This document shows, one piece after another, positions 11,397-48,749 of a DNA stretch of 64,000 nucleotides. A model generated the notes under the pieces. It had not been told where the DNA came from and searched no databases. It saw nothing but the letters and a program-made list of their open reading frames with translations. Numbering within the stretch: position 1 is the stretch's first letter; each line of letters opens with the position of its first letter. Position numbers and translations under genes: made by a program. Source of the DNA: an uncultured Alphaproteobacteria bacterium (lineage in GTDB: Bacteria > Pseudomonadota > Alphaproteobacteria > Rs-D84 > CACZYB01); contig CAKQHZ010000001.1 in NCBI GenBank assembly GCA_934246625.1, positions 434,964 to 498,963 of the forward strand, read 5' to 3'.

Positions 11397-12155
11397 TTAT
11401 GCCTCCTTTTTAACTTCAACTTTTGGGTTAAGTGCTGAACCAAGGTCTGCACCAGAATTTTTAAGTTGTTCTTCAAGTCCATCAAGTATTGCTTTTACAG
11501 CCAAATCACAGTAAAGTTTGATTGCCTTTATAGCATCATCGTTTCCTGGGATTGGGTAGTTTACATTTGATGGGTCAGAATTTGTATCACAGATTGCAAC
11601 AACTGGAATATCAAGTTTGTTTGCTTCTGTAATAGCTAAGTCTTCTTTTGATGCATCAATAACAAATATTATATCAGGAGCACCGTTCATATCGATAACA
11701 CCGCCAAGAACTGCTTGTAATTTTTTGTGTTCAAGTTCCATCTTTGCGATTTCTTTTTTTGTGAAACCAAGATTTTCAGCGTTAGCAATATCTGCTTCTA
11801 ATTTTTTAAGTTTTTTGATTGAGTTTACAACAGTTTTCCAGTTTGTAAGCATACCACCCAACCAACGTGTGTTGATGTAGTATTGTCCGCACATTTCAGC
11901 TGATTCTTTTACAATGTCTTGAGCTTGTCTTTTTGTGCCTACGAATAAGATTTTTCCGCCGTTTGCAGCAGTATTTCTTAATGCAGTAAGACCAGCATGA
12001 AGCATTGGAACTGTTTTTTGTAAATCAATAATGTGAATCTTATCTTTTACACCAAAGATGTATGATGCCATTTTTGGGTTCCAACGACGTGTGTGGTGAC
12101 CAAAGTGGCAACCTGCTTCGATAAGTTCTTTCATTGTAAATTTAGGGAATGTCAT
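11397..12155 (-). CDS. rpsB: 30S ribosomal protein S2
   Basis: MTFPKFTMKELIEAGCHFGHHTRRWNPKM... is the canonical uS2 N-terminus. rpsB-tsf synteny. Confidence 0.95.
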   Translation of the reverse strand: MTFPKFTMKELIEAGCHFGHHTRRWNPKMASYIFGVKDKIHIIDLQKTVPMLHAGLTALRNTAANGGKILFVGTKRQAQDIVKESAEMCGQYYINTRWLGGMLTNWKTVVNSIKKLKKLEADIANAENLGFTKKEIAKMELEHKKLQAVLGGVIDMNGAPDIIFVIDASKEDLAITEANKLDIPVVAICDTNSDPSNVNYPIPGNDDAIKAIKLYCDLAVKAILDGLEEQLKNSGADLGSALNPKVEVKKEA

Positions 12156-18448: not shown

Positions 18449-19486
18449 ATGAAACCATGTAATTGTTGCTGTTTCCCATTTGAAAGAATTATGTTAGAAG
18501 GTGATGGGGAGGTAAGTTTTTGTTGCCAAAGCAATAATTACAAGTATGTTTTAGGAAATATTTTTTCAGATTCCTTTGAGGATTTATGGTATGGTGAAAA
18601 GGCTATAAATTTTAGAAAATCGATTCTTGACGGGTCGTATAGATATTGCAATTTAGATGTTTGTGGTGATTTTTGTCCTTGGAATTGTTTTGATGCGAAT
18701 GGTAAAGATAAAGAAAAATTATTGTATCCACCATATCCAAAATATGTAAATATAAGTTATGTGTCTTCTTGTAATGTAAGATGTATGACTTGTCGAGATA
18801 AACTTTGTTTGGAACGACCTGAAGATACTGAGCAATTTGATAAAATTACAGATAAAGTTATTGATTTGTGTTGCAATGCTAAAACGGTTTATCTTGATGG
18901 TTCAGGTGAGCTTTTTACAAGTAATCATTTAAAGAAAATGGTTCATAAGTTGGTTGATAAATATCCGAATTTAAAATTTCATATACATACTAATGGTTTG
19001 CTTTGTGATGAACAGCATATTAAAGAATTTGGTTTAGAAGGTAGGATTTTATCACTTAATATTTCTATACACTCAGCAACAAAGAAAACTTATGAAACTA
19101 TAGTCAGAGGAGGGCATTGGGAACAACTTATTCAAAATTTAGAGTATATAAAAAGTTTGAATATTAAAGAAGTTTATTTCATTTTTGTTTTACATTCTCT
19201 TAATTATAAAGAAATGCCAGCTTTTGCAAAAATGGCAAAAAAGTATAATGCAAAAGCAAAGTTTTGGAGATTTAGAAATTGGGAAACATCTCAGATGTGT
19301 AGAGAAATTGATAGATATTCATGTTGGGAAAGTTGGCATCCTGATTATAAGAATTTTATAAAGATTTTAAGCAAACTTAAACGTGTAGGGAATTATATAC
19401 TTGCAGAACCTTTTTTACGAAAACTTCAAGCTGGCGCAAAGGATTCCTTTGTTGATAAAATTGTTAATTTTTTTAATAAAAAATAG
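18449..19486 (+). CDS. Radical SAM enzyme with N-terminal SPASM/twitch-like Cys-rich domain (345 aa). Function unknown.
   Basis: CxxxCxxC (SSCNVRCMTC) about 110 aa from the N-terminus. The N-terminal 90 aa CNCCC...GDGEVSFCC...LGNIFSDSFEDLWYGEKAINFRKSIL...CNLDVCGDFC resembles a SPASM auxiliary-cluster domain. Confidence 0.65.
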   Translation: MKPCNCCCFPFERIMLEGDGEVSFCCQSNNYKYVLGNIFSDSFEDLWYGEKAINFRKSILDGSYRYCNLDVCGDFCPWNCFDANGKDKEKLLYPPYPKYVNISYVSSCNVRCMTCRDKLCLERPEDTEQFDKITDKVIDLCCNAKTVYLDGSGELFTSNHLKKMVHKLVDKYPNLKFHIHTNGLLCDEQHIKEFGLEGRILSLNISIHSATKKTYETIVRGGHWEQLIQNLEYIKSLNIKEVYFIFVLHSLNYKEMPAFAKMAKKYNAKAKFWRFRNWETSQMCREIDRYSCWESWHPDYKNFIKILSKLKRVGNYILAEPFLRKLQAGAKDSFVDKIVNFFNKK

Positions 19487-22336: not shown

Positions 22337-23014
22337 ATGACAGATAAAAAATGGAAAAATAAGCATTATGAAAATACAGATGTTAAAAAAGAATCTGAGT
22401 GTGGTTGTAAGTGTGGTGAAAAATGTAATTGTGAAAAGGATAAATGTGCATCTGGAAATTGTGAATGTGGAAAGGATTGTAAGTGCCATCATGAACATCA
22501 TTGCAATGATTGTGGTGAAGGTGTTGAATGTCCAGATAATGGTTGTGAAAAGGAATTTGATAAAATTGAAAATTTAAAGGCTGAAGTTGCTTCTTGGCAA
22601 GAAAAGTATATAAGGACTTTGGCTGATTGTGAAAATGCAAAACGTCGTGCCGATATTGATGCAAAAAATATGATTGATTATAAAATCGCAAAATTTGCAA
22701 AGGATATGTTGCCTTTGGCTGATAATATTGCTTTGGCTTTGGCTTCTATTGAAGGAAAAGTTGATAGTAGTGTTATTGAAGGTTTGAAATCTATACAATC
22801 TGGTTTTATTAGCGCATTAGAAAAAAATAATATTTGCAAAATTAAAACTGTGGGTGAAAAACTTAATCCTCAGGAACATTGTGTTGTTATGCAAGTTGAT
22901 GACCCAAATGTAGAAGAAGGTGTTGTTGCACGTGAGCTTCAAGCTGGTTATAAGTTGGGTGATAAGGTTATTAGAGAAGCAATGGTCGCAACTTCAAATG
23001 GAAAAAAGAACTAA
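22337..23014 (+). CDS. grpE: Nucleotide exchange factor GrpE with an about 60-aa Cys/His-rich metallothionein-like N-terminal extension
   Basis: GrpE core ...ENLKAEVASWQEKYIRTLADCENAKRRADID... onward. The N-terminus is CGCKCGEKCNCEKDKCASGNCECGKDCKCHHEHHCNDCGEGVECPDNGC. SD AAAGGAA 6 nt before ATG 22337. The ORF track begins at an upstream TTG. Confidence 0.85.
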   Translation: MTDKKWKNKHYENTDVKKESECGCKCGEKCNCEKDKCASGNCECGKDCKCHHEHHCNDCGEGVECPDNGCEKEFDKIENLKAEVASWQEKYIRTLADCENAKRRADIDAKNMIDYKIAKFAKDMLPLADNIALALASIEGKVDSSVIEGLKSIQSGFISALEKNNICKIKTVGEKLNPQEHCVVMQVDDPNVEEGVVARELQAGYKLGDKVIREAMVATSNGKKN

Positions 23015-23416: not shown

Positions 23417-23501
23417 GGGAATGTGGCGGAATTGGTAGACGCGGCGGACTCAAAATCCGCTGGGGCGACCCTTGAGAGTTCGATTCTCTCCATTCCTACC
23501 A
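23417..23501 (+). tRNA. tRNA-Leu (anticodon CAA), class II, encoded CCA
   Basis: Hand-folded: acceptor GGGAATG/CATTCCT (G1-U72 wobble), anticodon stem GCGGA/TCCGC with loop CTCAAAA, long variable arm, T-arm GAGAG-TTCGATT-CTCTC. Confidence 0.85.
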
Positions 23502-23625
23502 AACTTTTAAAGTAAAGGCGATTGCCAAACAAGGATACAAACTTACAATTCTAAAACTCCTCACTATCGCTGTTCGTCGTTAAGAATTATTCGTGTTTGT
23601 GTTCTCTGATTCCTGCTAAATTTAG

Positions 23626-23655
23626 AATCAGCATTTTTCGGTGCTGATTTTTTTA
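23626..23655 (+). terminator. Rho-independent terminator (ATCAGCA-N8-TGCTGAT plus T6). Overlaps an alternative upstream hairpin.
   Basis: 7-bp stem at 23627-23648 followed by TTTTTT. The competing hairpin CTGATTC/GAATCAG (23606-23631) shares the AATCAG segment. Confidence 0.55.
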
Positions 23656-23747: not shown

Positions 23748-24056
23748 ATGATGAAAAAATTTCTATTATTTTTTTCTATTTTATTTTGTGTATTTTTCAA
23801 AGTGAATTCTTCCGTTTATGCAACTGTAAGCAGCAATTCTCTTGAAAAAATTCTATTTCAATATTGTGTTCCAAAAGAAGGAAATTGTGATGTAAAAGCC
23901 ACATATAAAAACGGTAAATGTATTTGTCCTGGTGATAAATTATATATGGACAGAGAATGTTTTAAACCTGTTTGTCCTTCTGGAACTTATATCTATTATA
24001 GTAACGACACAGATTCTTGTGGTGCGGGAAATTACAGAACAAAAGTCAGAAATTAA
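23748..24056 (+). CDS. Small secreted Cys-rich protein (102 aa) with a QYCVPxEGNCDVKATY module
   Basis: Signal peptide. 10 Cys in about 75 mature residues. Paralogous to 43731..44147. Confidence 0.7.
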   Translation: MMKKFLLFFSILFCVFFKVNSSVYATVSSNSLEKILFQYCVPKEGNCDVKATYKNGKCICPGDKLYMDRECFKPVCPSGTYIYYSNDTDSCGAGNYRTKVRN

Positions 24057-24150
24057 GTTTATGGGAGAACTACTTTCATAATTTTTGTCTGTTCTCTCTC
24101 CATTTAAAAATTTGTCTTTTATATAATAATCAAACAAAAAGGAGAAGACT

Positions 24151-25227
24151 ATGAACAATAAAAAATATATAATATCGGTAATAGGTGTGTTATCTTTTGT
24201 TGGAATTGCACACGCTGCTATTTTTCAATGCAGAACTTGTGAAGAGGGGACTTATGGTGATGGAACATCTGTAAGTTGCACAAAATGTCCGACTGGGGCA
24301 GTTTGTCCTGAGGGAACTGGAGCACCAATTTATTTATCAAATTATAAAGATAAGTTATTATCTGTATGTGGTGAGATAGGTAAGGAAATTGCAATAGATA
24401 CAGGTTTTTCTTCCAGTAATTTTGTTTCAGAAATGATTGATAAACAAAAAGTAAAAATAAATTATAGTGGAGATATAATTAAAAAGGGAGAAAGTGGTTA
24501 TAATTATGCAAGGGCATATTATGAAGTTAGTTGTTATGATCTTGATGGTTATTATGCAAGTAGTGGATATAAAGCTATTACAGATTTTATTCAAAGCAAA
24601 ATATGTAATGATGAATCAGAAGTAAAAAGTCATTTAGAACCTATGAGTTCATCATCAACTTTAACACCTGGAATATATAGGATTGATGTAGCTGGTGCCG
24701 GTGGTGGCGGTGCAGGTGGAAATGCTTGTGGATGGTGTTATGGAGCTGGTGGAGGTTATGGAGGTAATGGTGATTTGCAGACTAGATATATATATTTAGT
24801 TGATAATCAGCCTTATAATTATGTTGTTGGTGCTGGTGGTGGTAATGGTTGTGGTTCTGGTTGTAATCATCGTGGAGTAAATGGTAAGAAAGGTGGAACA
24901 TCATCCTTTACTTTGTTAGGAAATGTTTTTGAGGCATTAGGTGGAGATGGTGGAGAATCTGCACATAGTGGTTGTGATGTGTCTAATGGTAAAAATGGTG
25001 CTGCTGCTGGTAATGGTTTAGGTGGTGTTGGTGGTGAGAATAGATATGGTAACAAATGTGCTTATGATGGAAATACTGGTTGGGTAAAGATTTATCAAAT
25101 TGGTATGAGAAAAACCGGTTGTCCTTCTTTAAGACCATCTACTTCTTCTGGTGGATGTTCTTCAGGTGGTTATTTTGGCGGTTGCTCTACAGGTGGTTAT
25201 TTTGGTGGTTGCTCAGGAGGATACTGA
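24151..25227 (+). CDS. Secreted Cys/Gly-rich protein (358 aa) with an ephrin-receptor/TNFR-like CxxCxxGTY...CxxCPxG repeat, a glycine-rich domain and C-terminal GGYFGGCS repeats
   Basis: Signal peptide ...GIAHA. CRTCEEGTYGDGTSVSCTKCPTGAVCPEGTG. Gly-rich stretch VAGAGGGGAGG...GGGYGGNGD...VVGAGGGNG... C-terminal GGYFGGCSTGGYFGGCSGGY. Confidence 0.75.
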   Translation: MNNKKYIISVIGVLSFVGIAHAAIFQCRTCEEGTYGDGTSVSCTKCPTGAVCPEGTGAPIYLSNYKDKLLSVCGEIGKEIAIDTGFSSSNFVSEMIDKQKVKINYSGDIIKKGESGYNYARAYYEVSCYDLDGYYASSGYKAITDFIQSKICNDESEVKSHLEPMSSSSTLTPGIYRIDVAGAGGGGAGGNACGWCYGAGGGYGGNGDLQTRYIYLVDNQPYNYVVGAGGGNGCGSGCNHRGVNGKKGGTSSFTLLGNVFEALGGDGGESAHSGCDVSNGKNGAAAGNGLGGVGGENRYGNKCAYDGNTGWVKIYQIGMRKTGCPSLRPSTSSGGCSSGGYFGGCSTGGYFGGCSGGY

Positions 25228-31592: not shown

Positions 31593-31615
31593 GATTTAAT
31601 TTTTGGAAAATTAAA

Positions 31616-31648
31616 ACTGTCATATTTTTAGTATGGCAGTTTTTTTTA
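31616..31648 (+). terminator. Rho-independent terminator after the OMP gene (ACTGTCATA-N7-TATGGCAGT plus T8)
   Basis: 9-bp stem with one G-U pair, followed by TTTTTTTT. Confidence 0.7.
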
Positions 31649-31774
31649 TTGCCTTTTTGTTTCAAAAATGATAAATTTTTTTTAGATGTAATGAATAATT
31701 ACATTTAGTATCAAGTGTATAGTGATACGGAGCTTTGAACGGCTTTTTTACTTACAAGGGTATGAATTTTGTGT

Positions 31775-31797
31775 GATACCGTTTGGTATCTTTTTTT
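31775..31797 (+). terminator. Second terminator-like hairpin (GATACC-GTTT-GGTATC plus T7) inside the long intergenic region
   Basis: 6-bp stem and 7 Ts, about 125 nt after the previous terminator. May close a short untranslated transcript. Confidence 0.4.
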
Positions 31798-31961
31798 ATA
31801 CCCAAAGCCCCAACCTTTGTTGGTTGGGGAGCTGTGGTTATACAACAGGAATATAGTCTTTGCTATAGTCTAAAAGCCTCAGAGTCATTGTAAGTATGAT
31901 TGTTCAACTGCCCGACCACTATCTTTGATATGTGGGTTTATTTTATTAAAGGGAGAAAAAT

Positions 31962-32528
31962 ATGAAAATCATGAACAAAAAATTACTTTTATTATATATG
32001 TCTTTATATCCTTGTATAACAAATGCAAATGTATATATGTGTTTGCGATGTCCTGTTGGAACTTATGGTGATGGAAAATCATCATATTGTTCACCTTGTC
32101 CAAAAATAGATGGAGCACATTATTTGGAAGATTCAAAGAATTGTGAATGGGAGTGTGATGAAGGTAAAGTTGTTGTTGCAAAATATGCGAATGGTGGAGG
32201 TTGTTGCACTGAACCAGCTAAACCAAAATGTCCTTCTGTTAAAGTTTATGTTTTCGGTAACTGTTCAGGTTCGGGTTCTCATGGAGGATCTTGTCAACTT
32301 CAATATTCAAAAACTTTGGAATGTGGAGAAAGTTTTCAAAATGATGGGAGTGCGACAAATACACCAAATGGACAATATGATTGTATAACGATGGCTTGTA
32401 GAAGCGGAGGTTTTGTTAAAAATATTAATGGAGAAATGTGGTGTTATAAAGACTCCTATGATATGAAAAAAAATAAAAATGGACGTCATTATGATAGGTC
32501 AGGTGATGCTAAATGTCTAAAAGAGTAA
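31962..32528 (+). CDS. Secreted Cys-rich protein (188 aa) with ephrin-receptor/TNFR-like CLRCPVGTYGDGKSSYCSPCP repeat
   Basis: Signal peptide. 25 Cys. SD AAAGGGAGA. Motif shared with 24151..25227 and 44255..44908. Confidence 0.7.
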   Translation: MKIMNKKLLLLYMSLYPCITNANVYMCLRCPVGTYGDGKSSYCSPCPKIDGAHYLEDSKNCEWECDEGKVVVAKYANGGGCCTEPAKPKCPSVKVYVFGNCSGSGSHGGSCQLQYSKTLECGESFQNDGSATNTPNGQYDCITMACRSGGFVKNINGEMWCYKDSYDMKKNKNGRHYDRSGDAKCLKE

Positions 32529-42924: not shown

Positions 42925-43380
42925 ATGGAAAAAAATGTATTATATATTGATGATATAAAAAAGATATTGCCACACAGATATCCTTTTTTGCTTGTTGATA
43001 GAGTTATTGATATTGTGCCTGGACAATCTGGAACAGGTATTAAAAATGTAACAGTTAATGAAGAATTTTTTAATGGACATTTTCCTTCTTCTCCTGTGAT
43101 GCCTGGGGTTTTAATGTTGGAAGCAATGGCTCAAACAGCGGTGCTTGTTGGTGCAACAGATGAAACTGAGGAATTAAAGGGACAAATCGTATTTTTAACA
43201 GGAATTGATGATGCAAAATTTAAAAATAGAGTTATTCCTGGTGATCAACTTCATATCAAAGTTGAAAAATGTTCACAAAGAGGTGCTTTTGAAAAATGGA
43301 AAGCTGCAATCTATGTTGATGACAAACTTTGTGTATCTGCAACTTTGAGTGCTATGAAATCAGGTAAAACAAAGGTTTAA
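42925..43380 (+). CDS. fabZ: 3-hydroxyacyl-ACP dehydratase FabZ (151 aa)
   Basis: IxxxLPHRYPFLLVDRV...HFP..PVMPGVL..EAMAQ catalytic motif. Confidence 0.95.
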   Translation: MEKNVLYIDDIKKILPHRYPFLLVDRVIDIVPGQSGTGIKNVTVNEEFFNGHFPSSPVMPGVLMLEAMAQTAVLVGATDETEELKGQIVFLTGIDDAKFKNRVIPGDQLHIKVEKCSQRGAFEKWKAAIYVDDKLCVSATLSAMKSGKTKV

Positions 43381-43406
43381 ATTTTTATTATTTCAGTTAT
43401 TAAAGA

Positions 43407-43435
43407 AGGGTGTTAATTTTTTAACACCTTTTTTT
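43407..43435 (+). terminator. Rho-independent terminator after fabZ (GGTGTTAA-TTTT-TTAACACC plus T7)
   Basis: Perfect 8-bp stem followed by TTTTTTT. Confidence 0.75.
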
Positions 43436-43730
43436 GTTGCTTAAATCTTTATTATGTAATATCATAAAATTAGATTTGGATTTATCCAAGTTTAGCGTCC
43501 ATAGGTGGACGTGGGACTGTCGTAAGTTCTTTATATACTGCCGTATGTTATTTTACATACGATCTTTGTCCCCACCTTTAGTGGGGAGTCTTTGGTGTAT
43601 GTCCAGAGGATATTTTTATATTCTTAAAGACCAAGGAAATCATCTTGCAGTATATATGATTTACGAACTCCCCGCCATTTATGTGATAAATGGGAAAAAT
43701 TTTGTGATACACAAAAAAGGGGAAGAAACC

Positions 43731-44147
43731 ATGAAAAACTTATCTAAAGTACTTTGTATTTGTGCGGGGGCTATCTCGGCAAATCCTATTAACCTTCAGG
43801 CTAAAACTTTGCTTGAAACCTTGACTCAATACTGTGTTCCGACGGTTGGCAACTGCGACAAAAAGGCTACCTACAATACCTCTGGCAACTATTGCGATTG
43901 TGCCAACATCAACAAATTCTATAACTCTTCGAATCGTTCTTGCGAGAACTGTATCCTCGGCTCTTTCGCAACCTCAGACTATAAAACTTGTGAGCCTATT
44001 CATTGCCCTGACGGCTATGTTGCGACTTTGATTTCCAAAGGGGCGTGTCCAGATGGCTATACTTTGCAACAAATCAATGTGGCTTCGGGTTGTGGCGAGG
44101 GTTATGCGTTGAAGAAGTATAATCCGGCGACGAAGAGTTTTAATTAA
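43731..44147 (+). CDS. Secreted Cys-rich protein (138 aa), paralog of 23748..24056 (QYCVPTVGNCDKKATY module) but with a GC-rich codon style
   Basis: SD AAGGGGA before ATG 43731. Signal peptide MKNLSKVLCICAGAISA. The ORF body is about 43% GC against a genome background of about 30%. The upstream part of track ORF 43434..44147 is rejected as leader. Confidence 0.7.
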   Translation: MKNLSKVLCICAGAISANPINLQAKTLLETLTQYCVPTVGNCDKKATYNTSGNYCDCANINKFYNSSNRSCENCILGSFATSDYKTCEPIHCPDGYVATLISKGACPDGYTLQQINVASGCGEGYALKKYNPATKSFN

Positions 44148-44254
44148 AGATATGGGCGGGAGTTTTTTATCATAGTCTTGCTTCCGCCCTCCCAGATTGG
44201 CACTTTTGAAGAGGGGGAGGTGTCAAGGAAGAAACACCCTCGAAGGAGAAAAAA

Positions 44255-44908
44255 ATGAAAACCATGAAGAAAAAGAAATTAGCGGTGATAGGGATAGCGG
44301 GAATGCTCTCTGCAACACCTGCCTCCGCTCAAACATTTTATCAATGTATGCCTGTAAAGTGTAAAGCAGGAGAGTATGTAAGTGGAAGTAGTTGTGAGCG
44401 TTGCACTGGAGGTTATCGTTGTCCAGGAGATAATAAAAGGTATGCGTGCACAGGCGAATGGGAATATGCAACACCAGGAAGTTCATACTGCTCTACCTTT
44501 GGCCCAAGTGATGTTCGTATTTGGGTTGGTGGTGGCTGTGCTGATAGAGATAGAAACGATCAAGCTCTAATGTCTAAGTTAGTGCCAATTACATCTTTTT
44601 CTACAAAGAAGGAAAATGGTCAAACAAAATATATTACAAACTTTAGTATTCTATCAGACAGAAACAAATATGATAGATCAGGTTTCTTTAATTGTTTAGA
44701 TAATAATTTTAAAAAAAAATATACTTCACAAGAACAATGGTGTAAATATGCAAGTATTACTCTTTTAACAACTCCAAATGCTGGTGGTTCATCAGACTTT
44801 ACCGTAAAACAATATAGTAAAGTATATGGAACGTTAGAGTTTCGATCTAGTTTTGAGTGTTTAAGATTAGGTCCAGGCGGTGGTTGTGCAAATAAATGTA
44901 ATAATTAA
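44255..44908 (+). CDS. Secreted Cys-rich protein (217 aa) with ephrin-receptor/TNFR-like CKAGEYVSGSSCERCTGGYRCPG repeat. Compositionally mosaic.
   Basis: Strong SD GAAGGAGA. Signal peptide ...ATPASA. The 5' 330 nt are about 43% GC and the 3' 320 nt about 25% GC. Confidence 0.7.
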   Translation: MKTMKKKKLAVIGIAGMLSATPASAQTFYQCMPVKCKAGEYVSGSSCERCTGGYRCPGDNKRYACTGEWEYATPGSSYCSTFGPSDVRIWVGGGCADRDRNDQALMSKLVPITSFSTKKENGQTKYITNFSILSDRNKYDRSGFFNCLDNNFKKKYTSQEQWCKYASITLLTTPNAGGSSDFTVKQYSKVYGTLEFRSSFECLRLGPGGGCANKCNN

Positions 44909-47903: not shown

Positions 47904-48749
47904 TTACTTTGTTTTGAATTCGGTGATGATTTCATTTATTTTGTTTGATTTTAAAAGTTCACCTAATTTTATTTCAATAAAGTTTTTAAATGGATAAATT
48001 TCCTTATCTGAAGTGATTTTTGCAAATGTCTTTTTCTTGTTTAATGCCATAAAGTAATTTATTTTGTTTGGGTATTTTATTATTTTAAGGCTTTTGATTT
48101 TTGGATTATTTTTATTATCGTTTAGGTAGTTATTTACAAATTCCATTGTGGAAATAAGAAAACTTTTGTTATTAAAAATTGTTTCCATAGCGGAGTTTAT
48201 ATTTGCAATTTTTATTGATGATAGTTGTAGGTTTGGAATTGTGAAACCTTCTAATTCTATTGCATTATTTGTTTGTGATAGTTTTGATATTGTTTCAAAT
48301 AAATCCTTTGAAATTGTATTGTTGTTTGGAATAGAAGATTTATCAATAACAAGGACAATATTGTCAGTGTAGATTGGTTGAGAAATATAATCTAAATATT
48401 CAAGATTGTTTTCGTCAAATGTTATGCCTATGATTATATCAGGTGTGTTATTGGATAGGTAAAGCATAGATGTTTGTAATGCTTCGTTATAATTTGAATA
48501 TGGTGTGTATTTTGTTTTTACATTTGTGTTTTTGAATATTTCATTAAGGATACTGTGGCTTGCACCATAAGAAGTTGAGTTATAATAGTTTTTATTTGAT
48601 TTTATGTTAGGATTTAAAGTTTGCATACCAATAGGGGCTGTGTATTGAATGTATAGAGGTTCATTTGTTTGTGCAAAAGATAAACTACTTATCATTAAAA
48701 ATATAAGTATTAAAAGATAGTTTAAAATTTGTTTGCCCCCTCGAACCAT
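47904..48749 (-). CDS. Secreted Asn-rich hypothetical protein. Weak resemblance to family-3 periplasmic solute-binding proteins.
   Basis: Signal peptide. ...PDIIIGITFDENNLEYLDYISQPIYTDNIVLVIDKSS loosely resembles the SBP_bac_3 core. The assignment is weak. Confidence 0.4.
   Translation of the reverse strand: MVRGGKQILNYLLILIFLMISSLSFAQTNEPLYIQYTAPIGMQTLNPNIKSNKNYYNSTSYGASHSILNEIFKNTNVKTKYTPYSNYNEALQTSMLYLSNNTPDIIIGITFDENNLEYLDYISQPIYTDNIVLVIDKSSIPNNNTISKDLFETISKLSQTNNAIELEGFTIPNLQLSSIKIANINSAMETIFNNKSFLISTMEFVNNYLNDNKNNPKIKSLKIIKYPNKINYFMALNKKKTFAKITSDKEIYPFKNFIEIKLGELLKSNKINEIITEFKTK

Follow-up and report, generated by a model that had tools for sequence, protein, structure and literature searches.

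The locus and its two leaders

The stretch analysed here, referred to as the window, comprises 64,000 nucleotides (nt) of a contig from an uncultured alphaproteobacterium (CAKQHZ010000001.1, positions 434,964 to 498,963), and all coordinates given below count from its first letter. It carries two long leaders in front of cysteine-rich (Cys-rich) genes, which are 369 nt (31593-31961) and 350 nt (43381-43730) in length and both intergenic. Each of them harbours a member of a family of structured 5' leader RNAs that had not been catalogued before, and it is this family with which the present analysis is concerned. The two sites are made up as follows:

31593-31961: intergenic leader 1, between an OMP_b-brl (outer-membrane beta-barrel) gene and the Cys-rich gene 31962-32528
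31686-31947, + strand: leader copy 1, whole, type 2 loop variant, preceding the Cys-rich gene 31962-32528; supported by covariance model, RNAfold and helices read from the sequence
43381-43730: intergenic leader 2, between fabZ (42925-43380) and the small Cys-rich gene 43731-44147
43473-43693, + strand: leader copy 2, whole, type 1 loop variant, between fabZ and the small Cys-rich gene 43731-44147; supported by covariance model, RNAfold and orthologues
44255-44908: larger Cys-rich gene, following the small Cys-rich gene 43731-44147

The initial annotation had pointed to a shared hairpin with a similar tail in both leaders, at 31808-31860 and 43569-43615, and the strings are present exactly at these positions: CCCCAACC-TTTGTT-GGTTGGGG (31808-31829), followed by AGCTGTGGTTATACAACAGGAATAT, in copy 1, and TCCCCAC-CTTTA-GTGGGGA (43569-43587), followed by GTCTTTGGTGTATGTCCAGAGGATAT, in copy 2. 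The leaders are indeed long, and the motif cores have 41-42% G+C versus 32% for the window. The shared hairpin and tail are confirmed, but they do not form a self-contained unit, being only part of a structured 5' leader of about 230 nt. The shared element spans about 31686-31947 in copy 1 and about 43473-43693 in copy 2, far beyond the piece first annotated, which corresponds to an alternative hairpin (C1:G2), the 5' strand of helix Pb and a conserved internal loop.

Detection of the family

When leader 1 was compared with leader 2 by plain BLASTN, nothing significant was obtained (best E about 0.5); BLASTN at word size 7 and MAFFT were likewise uninformative and misaligned the hairpins. It takes a structure-aware model to see the relationship of the two leaders. 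Orthologues of leader 1 that were collected via homologues of the Cys-rich protein all stem from the same species, and with about 99% identity in the leader they carry no covariation information. A FabZ search of the species representatives in GTDB led to metagenome-assembled genomes (MAGs) of related gut Alphaproteobacteria (L008-L020; FabZ 74-90% identical), and in five of these (L008, L009, L010, L011, and L016) fabZ is likewise followed by a diverged copy of leader 2.

From the cores of window copy 2 and these five orthologues, with copy 1 left out, covariance model R1 was built. It recovers copy 1 with 36.6 bits (E = 7e-7), against 113 bits for copy 2, and it matches two more MAG copies (L010, 19330-19436; L018, 12277-12393), both of which lie upstream of small Cys-rich genes. 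A broader covariance model, R2, searched without filters, yields two copies and no more in the 64-kb window, copy 1 with 56 bits (E = 4e-12) and copy 2 with 80.8 bits (E = 2e-18). A weak R2 match at 48617-48718 (E = 0.03) was dismissed, as it is devoid of the conserved blocks GGGGAG and AACTSCCCG. In the same R2 search of the window, the third Cys-rich locus (23748-25227) was without a leader copy. Random occurrence, which had been named as the outcome that would speak against a real motif, does not account for the sites: the pattern TGGGGAG-N60-90-AACTSCCCG is found twice in the window versus 0.00 times expected. In comparison with shuffled sequences, both leaders fold far better in RNAfold (z = -4.5 for copy 1 and -6.75 for copy 2).

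For a wider collection, metagenome contigs were scanned with the exact pattern AAAG-N7-12-TCATY-N5-16-TGATT-N4-AACTSCCCG, which yielded at least 120 matching stretches; the same pattern had no match in 2.9 million viral contigs. Of 80 loci taken from the listed stretches, 79 are matched by R1 over its full length, with E from 4e-18 to 3e-3. The collection used below consists of 69 distinct cores, namely those of the window, those of the MAG loci and more than 60 among the metagenome matches listed; six of the cores are the fabZ-downstream orthologues. One neighbouring locus contains a two-piece alphaproteobacterial transfer-messenger RNA, which agrees with the labels of the MAGs.

In some cases, two family members are found on one contig or locus (L139, at 469-566 and 780-880; L104, L123, and L160; L010, at 10645 and 19330). 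The pair of L139 stands in tandem before a single gene, and a tandem arrangement is known for some riboswitches.

Consensus fold and covariation

Members measure about 190-210 nt from helix H2 to segment C2, and 220-260 nt including the 5' hairpins and the terminator. The element starts a few nt after a sigma-70-like -10 box. Its 5' part is composed of an optional hairpin P0, a hairpin Pa', frequently with a GNRA-type loop, helix H2 (consensus GGGGCU / GU-NNNN / AGCUCU), a U, the 5' strand of helix P2 and a hairpin A, sometimes followed by a hairpin A2. The middle part comprises C1 CCCCGACC, G2 GGUCGGGGAG, the 5' strand of helix Pb, a conserved loop, hairpin D, YUAAAG and the 3' strand of Pb. 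The 3' part consists of RRUCAUY, the 3' strand of P2, RUGAUUU, a segment b' (NNNN), AA, C2 CUCCCCGAC and an intrinsic terminator, the 5' arm of which begins at the GAC of C2, with the Shine-Dalgarno (SD) sequence and start codon 5-40 nt after the terminator.

Copy 1 shows the order P0 hairpin, Pa' hairpin, H2, P2, hairpin A, C1/G2, Pb-D domain, b', C2, and terminator-like hairpin with a U-rich tail. Its parts are:

31729-31746, + strand: H2, GGAGCT / TTGAAC / GGCTTT
31736-31740: loop bases of the pseudoknot, paired with 31902-31906
31749-31756, + strand: P2 5' strand TACTTACA, paired with TGTAAGTA at 31889-31896
31808-31831, + strand: hairpin B, in which C1 CCCCAACC (31808-31815) pairs with G2 GGTTGGGGAG (31822-31831)
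31832-31882, + strand: Pb-D domain, with CTGTGG (Pb 5'), conserved loop TTATACAACAGG (31838-31849), hairpin D, loop CTAAAAG, and CCTCAG (Pb 3')
31883-31916, + strand: 3' strand block, with AGTCATT, the P2 3' strand, TGATT, b' GTTC (31902-31905), AA, C2 CTGCCC (31908-31913), and GAC
31914-31947, + strand: terminator-like hairpin CCACTATC-TTT-GATATGTGG, with one bulge, then GTTTATTTTATT

The corresponding parts of copy 2 are:

43513-43541, + strand: H2, GGGACT / GTCGTA / AGTTCT (43513-43530), and P2 5' strand TATATACTGC (43532-43541)
43521-43524: loop CGTA of the pseudoknot, paired with TACG (43662-43665)
43569-43588, + strand: hairpin B, in which C1 TCCCCAC (43569-43575) pairs with G2 GTGGGGAG (43581-43588); also called by the hairpin scan
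43589-43637, + strand: Pb-D domain, with TCTTTGGT, loop GTATGTCCA (conserved part 43597-43605), hairpin D, loop TTAAAG, and ACCAAGGA
43638-43676, + strand: 3' strand block, with AATCATC, P2 3' strand GCAGTATATA (43647-43656), TGATT, b' TACG, AA, C2 CTCCCC (43668-43673), and GCC
43675-43693, + strand: hairpin F, CCATTTAT-GTG-ATAAATGG, at the terminator position of other members, without a U-run

The sequences of H2, the pseudoknot, P2 and Pb vary between members, while their complementarity is kept. All eight pairs of Pb are changed on both sides, with 97% of the alignment cells paired, and pairing drops to 34-50% when the partner is slid by 1-3 columns; in hairpin D, all six pairs are changed on both sides (93.5% of cells paired). 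In a MAFFT alignment that was not fitted to the structure, five of the six H2 pairs and four of the five pseudoknot pairs, the latter with 96% of cells paired, are changed on both sides. The pseudoknot, which joins the H2 loop to b', is complementary at all 4 positions in 56 of 58 members when tested at fixed positions (permutation mean 5.5, maximum 13), and 22 different 4-mers occur among the members; a position-free test that allows G-U pairs does not discriminate (64 of 69 versus 41 in the control). For P2, the 18 nt after H2 were tested against the 12 nt before UGAUU. All 58 members have 7-11 uninterrupted pairs there, compared with a mean of 4.6 for mismatched partners, with 50 distinct 8-mers among them; by duplex energy, a member's own upstream region mostly ranks 1-3 of 66. 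Over the helices counted, 91-97% of the cells are paired, and the shuffle, slide and permutation controls lie far below the observed values.

As G-U pairs are frequent, the fold belongs to the sense-strand RNA and not to a DNA palindrome. With a first loop of 1-2 nt and no second loop, H2 and its loop pairing would adopt the classical H-type pseudoknot geometry. Neither of the automated predictions had captured this: the minimum-free-energy "long rod" of RNAfold and the first RNAalifold consensus are each partly wrong in missing the H2 pseudoknot, the latter also pairing C1 with the SD sequence, and both were replaced after comparison of the members by eye and permutation tests.

The conserved internal loop comes in two main variants, GUAUGUYCA / YUAAAG in 49 members including copy 2, and UUAUAHAACAGG in 16 members including copy 1, which could reflect two effector specificities. 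Three members have no hairpin D, the two loop strands being joined directly.

Alternative pairing and the terminator

G2 GGUCGGGGAG has two partners. It pairs either with the upstream C1, forming the CCCC/GGGG hairpin B, or with the downstream C2 CUCCCCGAC, forming helix Pa, which closes the conserved junction. The core of G2:C2, GGGGAG:CUCCCC, is almost invariant and paired in 99% of cells, with a compensating pair in the second L010 copy (19330), where GGGUAG faces CUGCCC. In copy 2, six of six positions are paired; in copy 1, five of six core positions are, together with 4 extension pairs. Covariation in the flanks of both helices is modest: the Pa extension, i.e., the three bases 5' of GGGG, is paired in 74-76% versus 63-65% in permutations (p about 0.002), and hairpin B has at least 3 extra pairs in 56% of the members versus 34% in permutations. 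When the upstream or the downstream pairing of G2 is forced, the two states are nearly iso-energetic, with a median difference of -1.3 kcal/mol.

Of 68 members, 42 carry a perfect-stem GC-rich hairpin with a U-run that begins no more than 2 nt from the base next to the 3' end of CUCCCC, and in 38 of those 42 it begins exactly at that base; several further members have imperfect versions. Given this position, the bases that extend Pa are also the bottom of the terminator stem, and in copy 1, too, the 5' arm of the terminator-like hairpin overlaps the bases that extend the G2:C2 helix. The distance from the U-run to the SD sequence is typically 5-30 nt, which leaves no space for a separate promoter, so that the downstream gene would have to be transcribed through the terminator. 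In 23 of 53 members, -10 and -35 boxes are located 21-67 nt ahead of H2. An open reading frame (ORF) within the leader, with ATG, at least 8 codons and an SD-like motif, is present in only 7 of 58 leaders, with scattered stop positions and none conserved; the decision is therefore not made by a translating ribosome.

Genes downstream of the leader

About 50 of the 69 members are followed, 15-130 nt downstream, by an ORF on the same strand with an SD sequence, which places the element in the predicted 5' untranslated region (UTR), as is expected of a riboswitch. The initial annotation had proposed a motif specific to the Cys-rich gene family. The enrichment is strong but not exclusive, as a Cys content of at least 5%, taken here as Cys-rich, is reached by only 19 of 56 downstream ORFs, and these code for secreted proteins. 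Other downstream products are prepilin-type proteins, LRR_5 (BspA-type) proteins, PEGA lipoproteins, OMP_b-brl outer-membrane beta-barrels, DNA methylases (EcoRI_methylase, N6_N4_Mtase), an HTH_3 regulator and a GT2-like protein. Taken together, the regulon looks like a set of surface, secreted and defence "contingency" genes.

The Cys-rich gene 31962-32528 is hypervariable between strains of one species. In comparison with loci L001-L007, its identity is 75-91% at the DNA and 67-97% at the protein level, and the length of its product ranges from 180 to 228 amino acids. In the same strains, identity is 96-100% for clpP, the OMP gene, the leader and rubrerythrin; divergence begins at the start codon of the Cys-rich gene.

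A proposed switch and its alternatives

Of the two alternatives that the initial annotation had offered, the first, a cis-regulatory RNA motif, is the one that the data favour: the element is always oriented in the same way towards the gene that follows, its covariation is strong and includes many G-U pairs, and a terminator comes directly after it. Like riboswitches, the leader combines a structured domain supported by covariation with an expression platform of mutually exclusive structures. It is probably a cis-acting, riboswitch-like transcription attenuator that responds to a putative effector, the large conserved domain with its two long-range pairings being the obvious candidate sensor. 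During transcription, C1:G2 would form first. Upon folding of the sensor domain, or binding of the effector to it, C2 would displace C1, and Pa together with its 3-4 bp extension would occupy the base of the terminator stem, so that RNA polymerase could read through (ON). Otherwise, C1:G2 would persist, the terminator would form and transcription would stop (OFF). This would be the logic of a four-segment attenuator, in which C1:G2 plus terminator is OFF and G2:C2 is ON; hairpin B of copy 1 is read, from its base pairing, as the putative anti-antiterminator (segments 1:2). The existence of an effector and the direction of the switch are what we infer from this architecture: a folded or bound sensor should favour Pa and read-through because Pa closes the junction that contains nearly all conserved unpaired nucleotides. 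The P1 helix of known riboswitches closes such a junction likewise.

Several points weigh against this interpretation. The pattern used for retrieval fixed the blocks AAAG, TCATY, TGATT and AACTSCCCG, and their invariance is partly circular; the same blocks are present in the members that were found independently of the pattern, i.e., the six fabZ-synteny copies and the two extra copies found by covariance model (L010 and L018). Alignment A7 was fitted to the model structure and leans towards it, and the Pa core and the RRUCAU/AUGAYY blocks are nearly invariant, beyond the reach of covariation testing. Pa and terminator overlap by only 3-4 nt, where the covariation signal is modest. The terminator of copy 1 is weak, bulged and below the stringency of the consensus scan, and where other members have the terminator, copy 2 and its orthologues show a hairpin that no U-run follows. 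Four or five members are without an evident ORF within 150 nt downstream and could be free-standing RNAs. Among the downstream products, which are heterogeneous, neither a common metabolic theme, such as the genes under one riboswitch would share, nor an indication of the ligand was found. Finally, transcription start sites, termination and read-through are themselves predicted.

The ORF-less members, together with the loci that have two copies, would suit a free-standing small RNA (sRNA) gene that has a promoter and a terminator to itself and of which each genome holds several divergent copies, the product acting in trans or serving as a scaffold or protein-binding RNA; the proximity of genes would then be incidental, or these would be expressed by leaky read-through. 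Promoter-like boxes upstream and a terminator directly downstream fit this as well, and a terminated product of about 230-280 nt would be stable and highly structured (z = -4.5 and -6.75). We consider it unlikely, as about 50 of the 69 members have an SD sequence and start codon on the same strand, usually 5-30 nt past the U-run and with no room for a promoter. In addition, the copy 2 group is without a terminator, and G2 has two conserved, mutually exclusive partners of near-equal energy, which a simple sRNA would not need. The want of a terminator in the copy 2 type, the location at the extreme 5' end of the predicted transcript and the many downstream genes for abundant surface or secreted proteins would, in turn, be compatible with a constitutive 5' UTR module, be it an mRNA stabiliser or translation enhancer, a protection from 5' decay or a platform for a global RNA-binding protein, serving highly expressed envelope genes. 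Such a role is quite improbable, since a terminator right after the element in 42 of 68 members would oppose constitutive expression and the alternative pairings are conserved. Moreover, known 5' stabilisers, such as the ompA-type 5' hairpins, need far less than conserved internal loops and a double long-range fold that takes up about 200 nt. Possibly, one or the other of these two roles applies to some members.

An origin at the DNA level is very hard to reconcile with the data. More than one copy per genome and the long inverted complementarity, which shows as a long closing stem in RNAfold, would fit the second alternative of the initial annotation, a dispersed palindromic repeat or miniature mobile element that lands near these genes, akin to Rickettsia palindromic elements (RPE) or miniature inverted-repeat transposable elements. 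The window copies, however, are not detectably similar by BLASTN, as repeats within one genome should be; their helix sequences differ with complementarity kept, and the G-U pairs would read as A-C mismatches on the opposite strand. All copies have the same orientation and position with respect to the start codon that follows, and the fabZ-linked copy is in the same place in six species, unlike random insertions; the leader is as conserved as the flanking genes in conspecific strains (about 99%), and it has neither terminal inverted repeats nor target duplications. Surface proteins, pilins, DNA methylases and a glycosyltransferase downstream, as well as the hypervariability of the Cys-rich gene between strains, resemble phase-variable loci, in which an invertible promoter or another site-specific recombination element would switch surface and restriction-modification genes. 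This is just as improbable: every copy retrieved has the same orientation relative to its gene, the conserved blocks are strand-specific with frequent G-U pairs, and the complementary segments differ at every locus and hence do not provide a common recombinase site.

Other candidates were rejected. Chance similarity is contradicted by covariation, strand specificity, constant orientation and synteny. An integron attC site, a boxA/nut-like element (in view of the H2 3' arm AGCUCUU) and a hepatitis delta virus-like ribozyme topology were dropped because orientation, covariation or helix order does not fit. A ribosome-mediated leader-peptide attenuator should have a conserved ORF in segment 1, which was not found, and a T-box leader is at odds with the lack of an Rfam T-box match and of amino-acid-related genes downstream.

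Relation to known RNA families and significance

With the 4227 covariance models of Rfam 15, the window contains only three tRNAs at gathering thresholds, and neither leader has a relevant match at E up to 10. Among other member loci, 20 searched at gathering thresholds and 12 at E up to 5 had no family at the coordinates of the motif. No equivalent element was found described in the literature, where our coverage is incomplete and an earlier description is possible. We file the leader as a new family within a known kind, the riboswitch-like transcription attenuators.

With transcriptional riboswitches, such as the pbuE (ydhL) adenine ON switch, and with four-segment attenuators, it shares a structured 5' leader with an intrinsic terminator directly after it, a junction-closing helix (Pa) that shares bases with the terminator, an upstream competitor with 1:2 + 3:4 versus 2:3 logic, and near iso-energetic states. 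In contrast to these, the competitor C1 is itself part of the sensor domain and precedes the closing helix on the 5' side, and there is neither a leader peptide nor a common metabolic theme. Cyclic di-GMP riboswitches (GEMM-I, RF01051; c-di-GMP-II, RF01786) also precede heterogeneous pilin, adhesin, surface and regulator genes, often have terminators and sometimes occur in tandem; the resemblance is one of gene repertoire only. The present element differs from them in having no Rfam match at E up to 10, in its H-type pseudoknot, long-range P2 and Pb-D domain, and in being about twice their size. RPE, like the leader, occur in multiple copies with internal complementarity in an AT-rich alphaproteobacterial genome, whereas the leader copies are dissimilar in sequence, strand-specific, always promoter-proximal upstream of genes, covarying and orthologous across species.

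Large orphan RNAs, i.e., the raiA motif, EGFOA (RF02955) and Gut-1 (RF01706), are comparable in their complex fold and in being found mainly or only in uncultured or gut bacteria. Our element has no Rfam match to these families and, unlike them, it is positioned in cis with a terminator. EGFOA, which has members in Veillonella and Paenibacillus, is described as a putative small RNA of large intergenic regions (bioRxiv 10.64898/2026.07.01.735769), and Gut-1 is listed as not cis-regulatory (PMC2864571). The notion that the EGFOA motif precedes EGF-like genes was considered and is wrong, EGFOA being an unrelated small-RNA family.

More tentatively, and as a possibility rather than an expectation, the leaders may constitute a new riboswitch class, the pocket of which comes as GUAUGUYCA or as UUAUAHAACAGG, both occurring in one genome. 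It would sense one signalling molecule, or two related ones, and co-ordinate a contingency regulon in uncultured gut, possibly also other host-associated, Alphaproteobacteria. Should this hold, the regulon would be an unusual one of surface, secreted and defence genes, comprising hypervariable Cys-rich secreted proteins, one of them strain-hypervariable as described above, as well as pilins, BspA-like adhesins, envelope proteins and restriction-modification methylases. It would be under the control of a large and widespread regulatory RNA family (at least 120 matching stretches), overlooked because it resides in uncultured, AT-rich gut Alphaproteobacteria. The family would represent an orphan riboswitch-type class with an unusual fold that combines an H-type pseudoknot with a long-range helix and an internal competitor hairpin. 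Host-facing surface variation would be tied to a single RNA sensor, and the effector would offer a handle on the physiology of organisms that have not yet been grown. The covariance model could serve to annotate hundreds of blank 300-nt intergenic regions in gut metagenomes.

Further features of the window and related loci

Another element is shared as well: UAUGGG with a G-rich/C-rich hairpin behind it (e.g., GGGCGGGAG...CTTCCGCCC) is located after the stop codon of the small Cys-rich gene and before the large gene. It is found in the window at 24057-24103 and 44150-44200, in L018 at about 12100-12150 (- strand) and in L159 downstream of its leader; in some loci, it stands between leader and gene. 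It may be an intercistronic processing or attenuation hairpin.

The region 23500-23655, which follows a tRNA (23417-23498) and precedes the leaderless Cys-rich pair 23748-25227, has a higher G+C content and a terminator-like hairpin at its end, GAATCAGCA...TGCTGATTTTTTT; in the R2 search of the window, it was not a copy of the leader family. Two further Cys-rich ORFs of the window, 22337-23014 and 18449-19486, are unrelated to the secreted family. One of them has N-terminal CxC/CxxC motifs and His repeats, with the look of a metal-binding protein, and the other begins with MKPCNCCCFPF.

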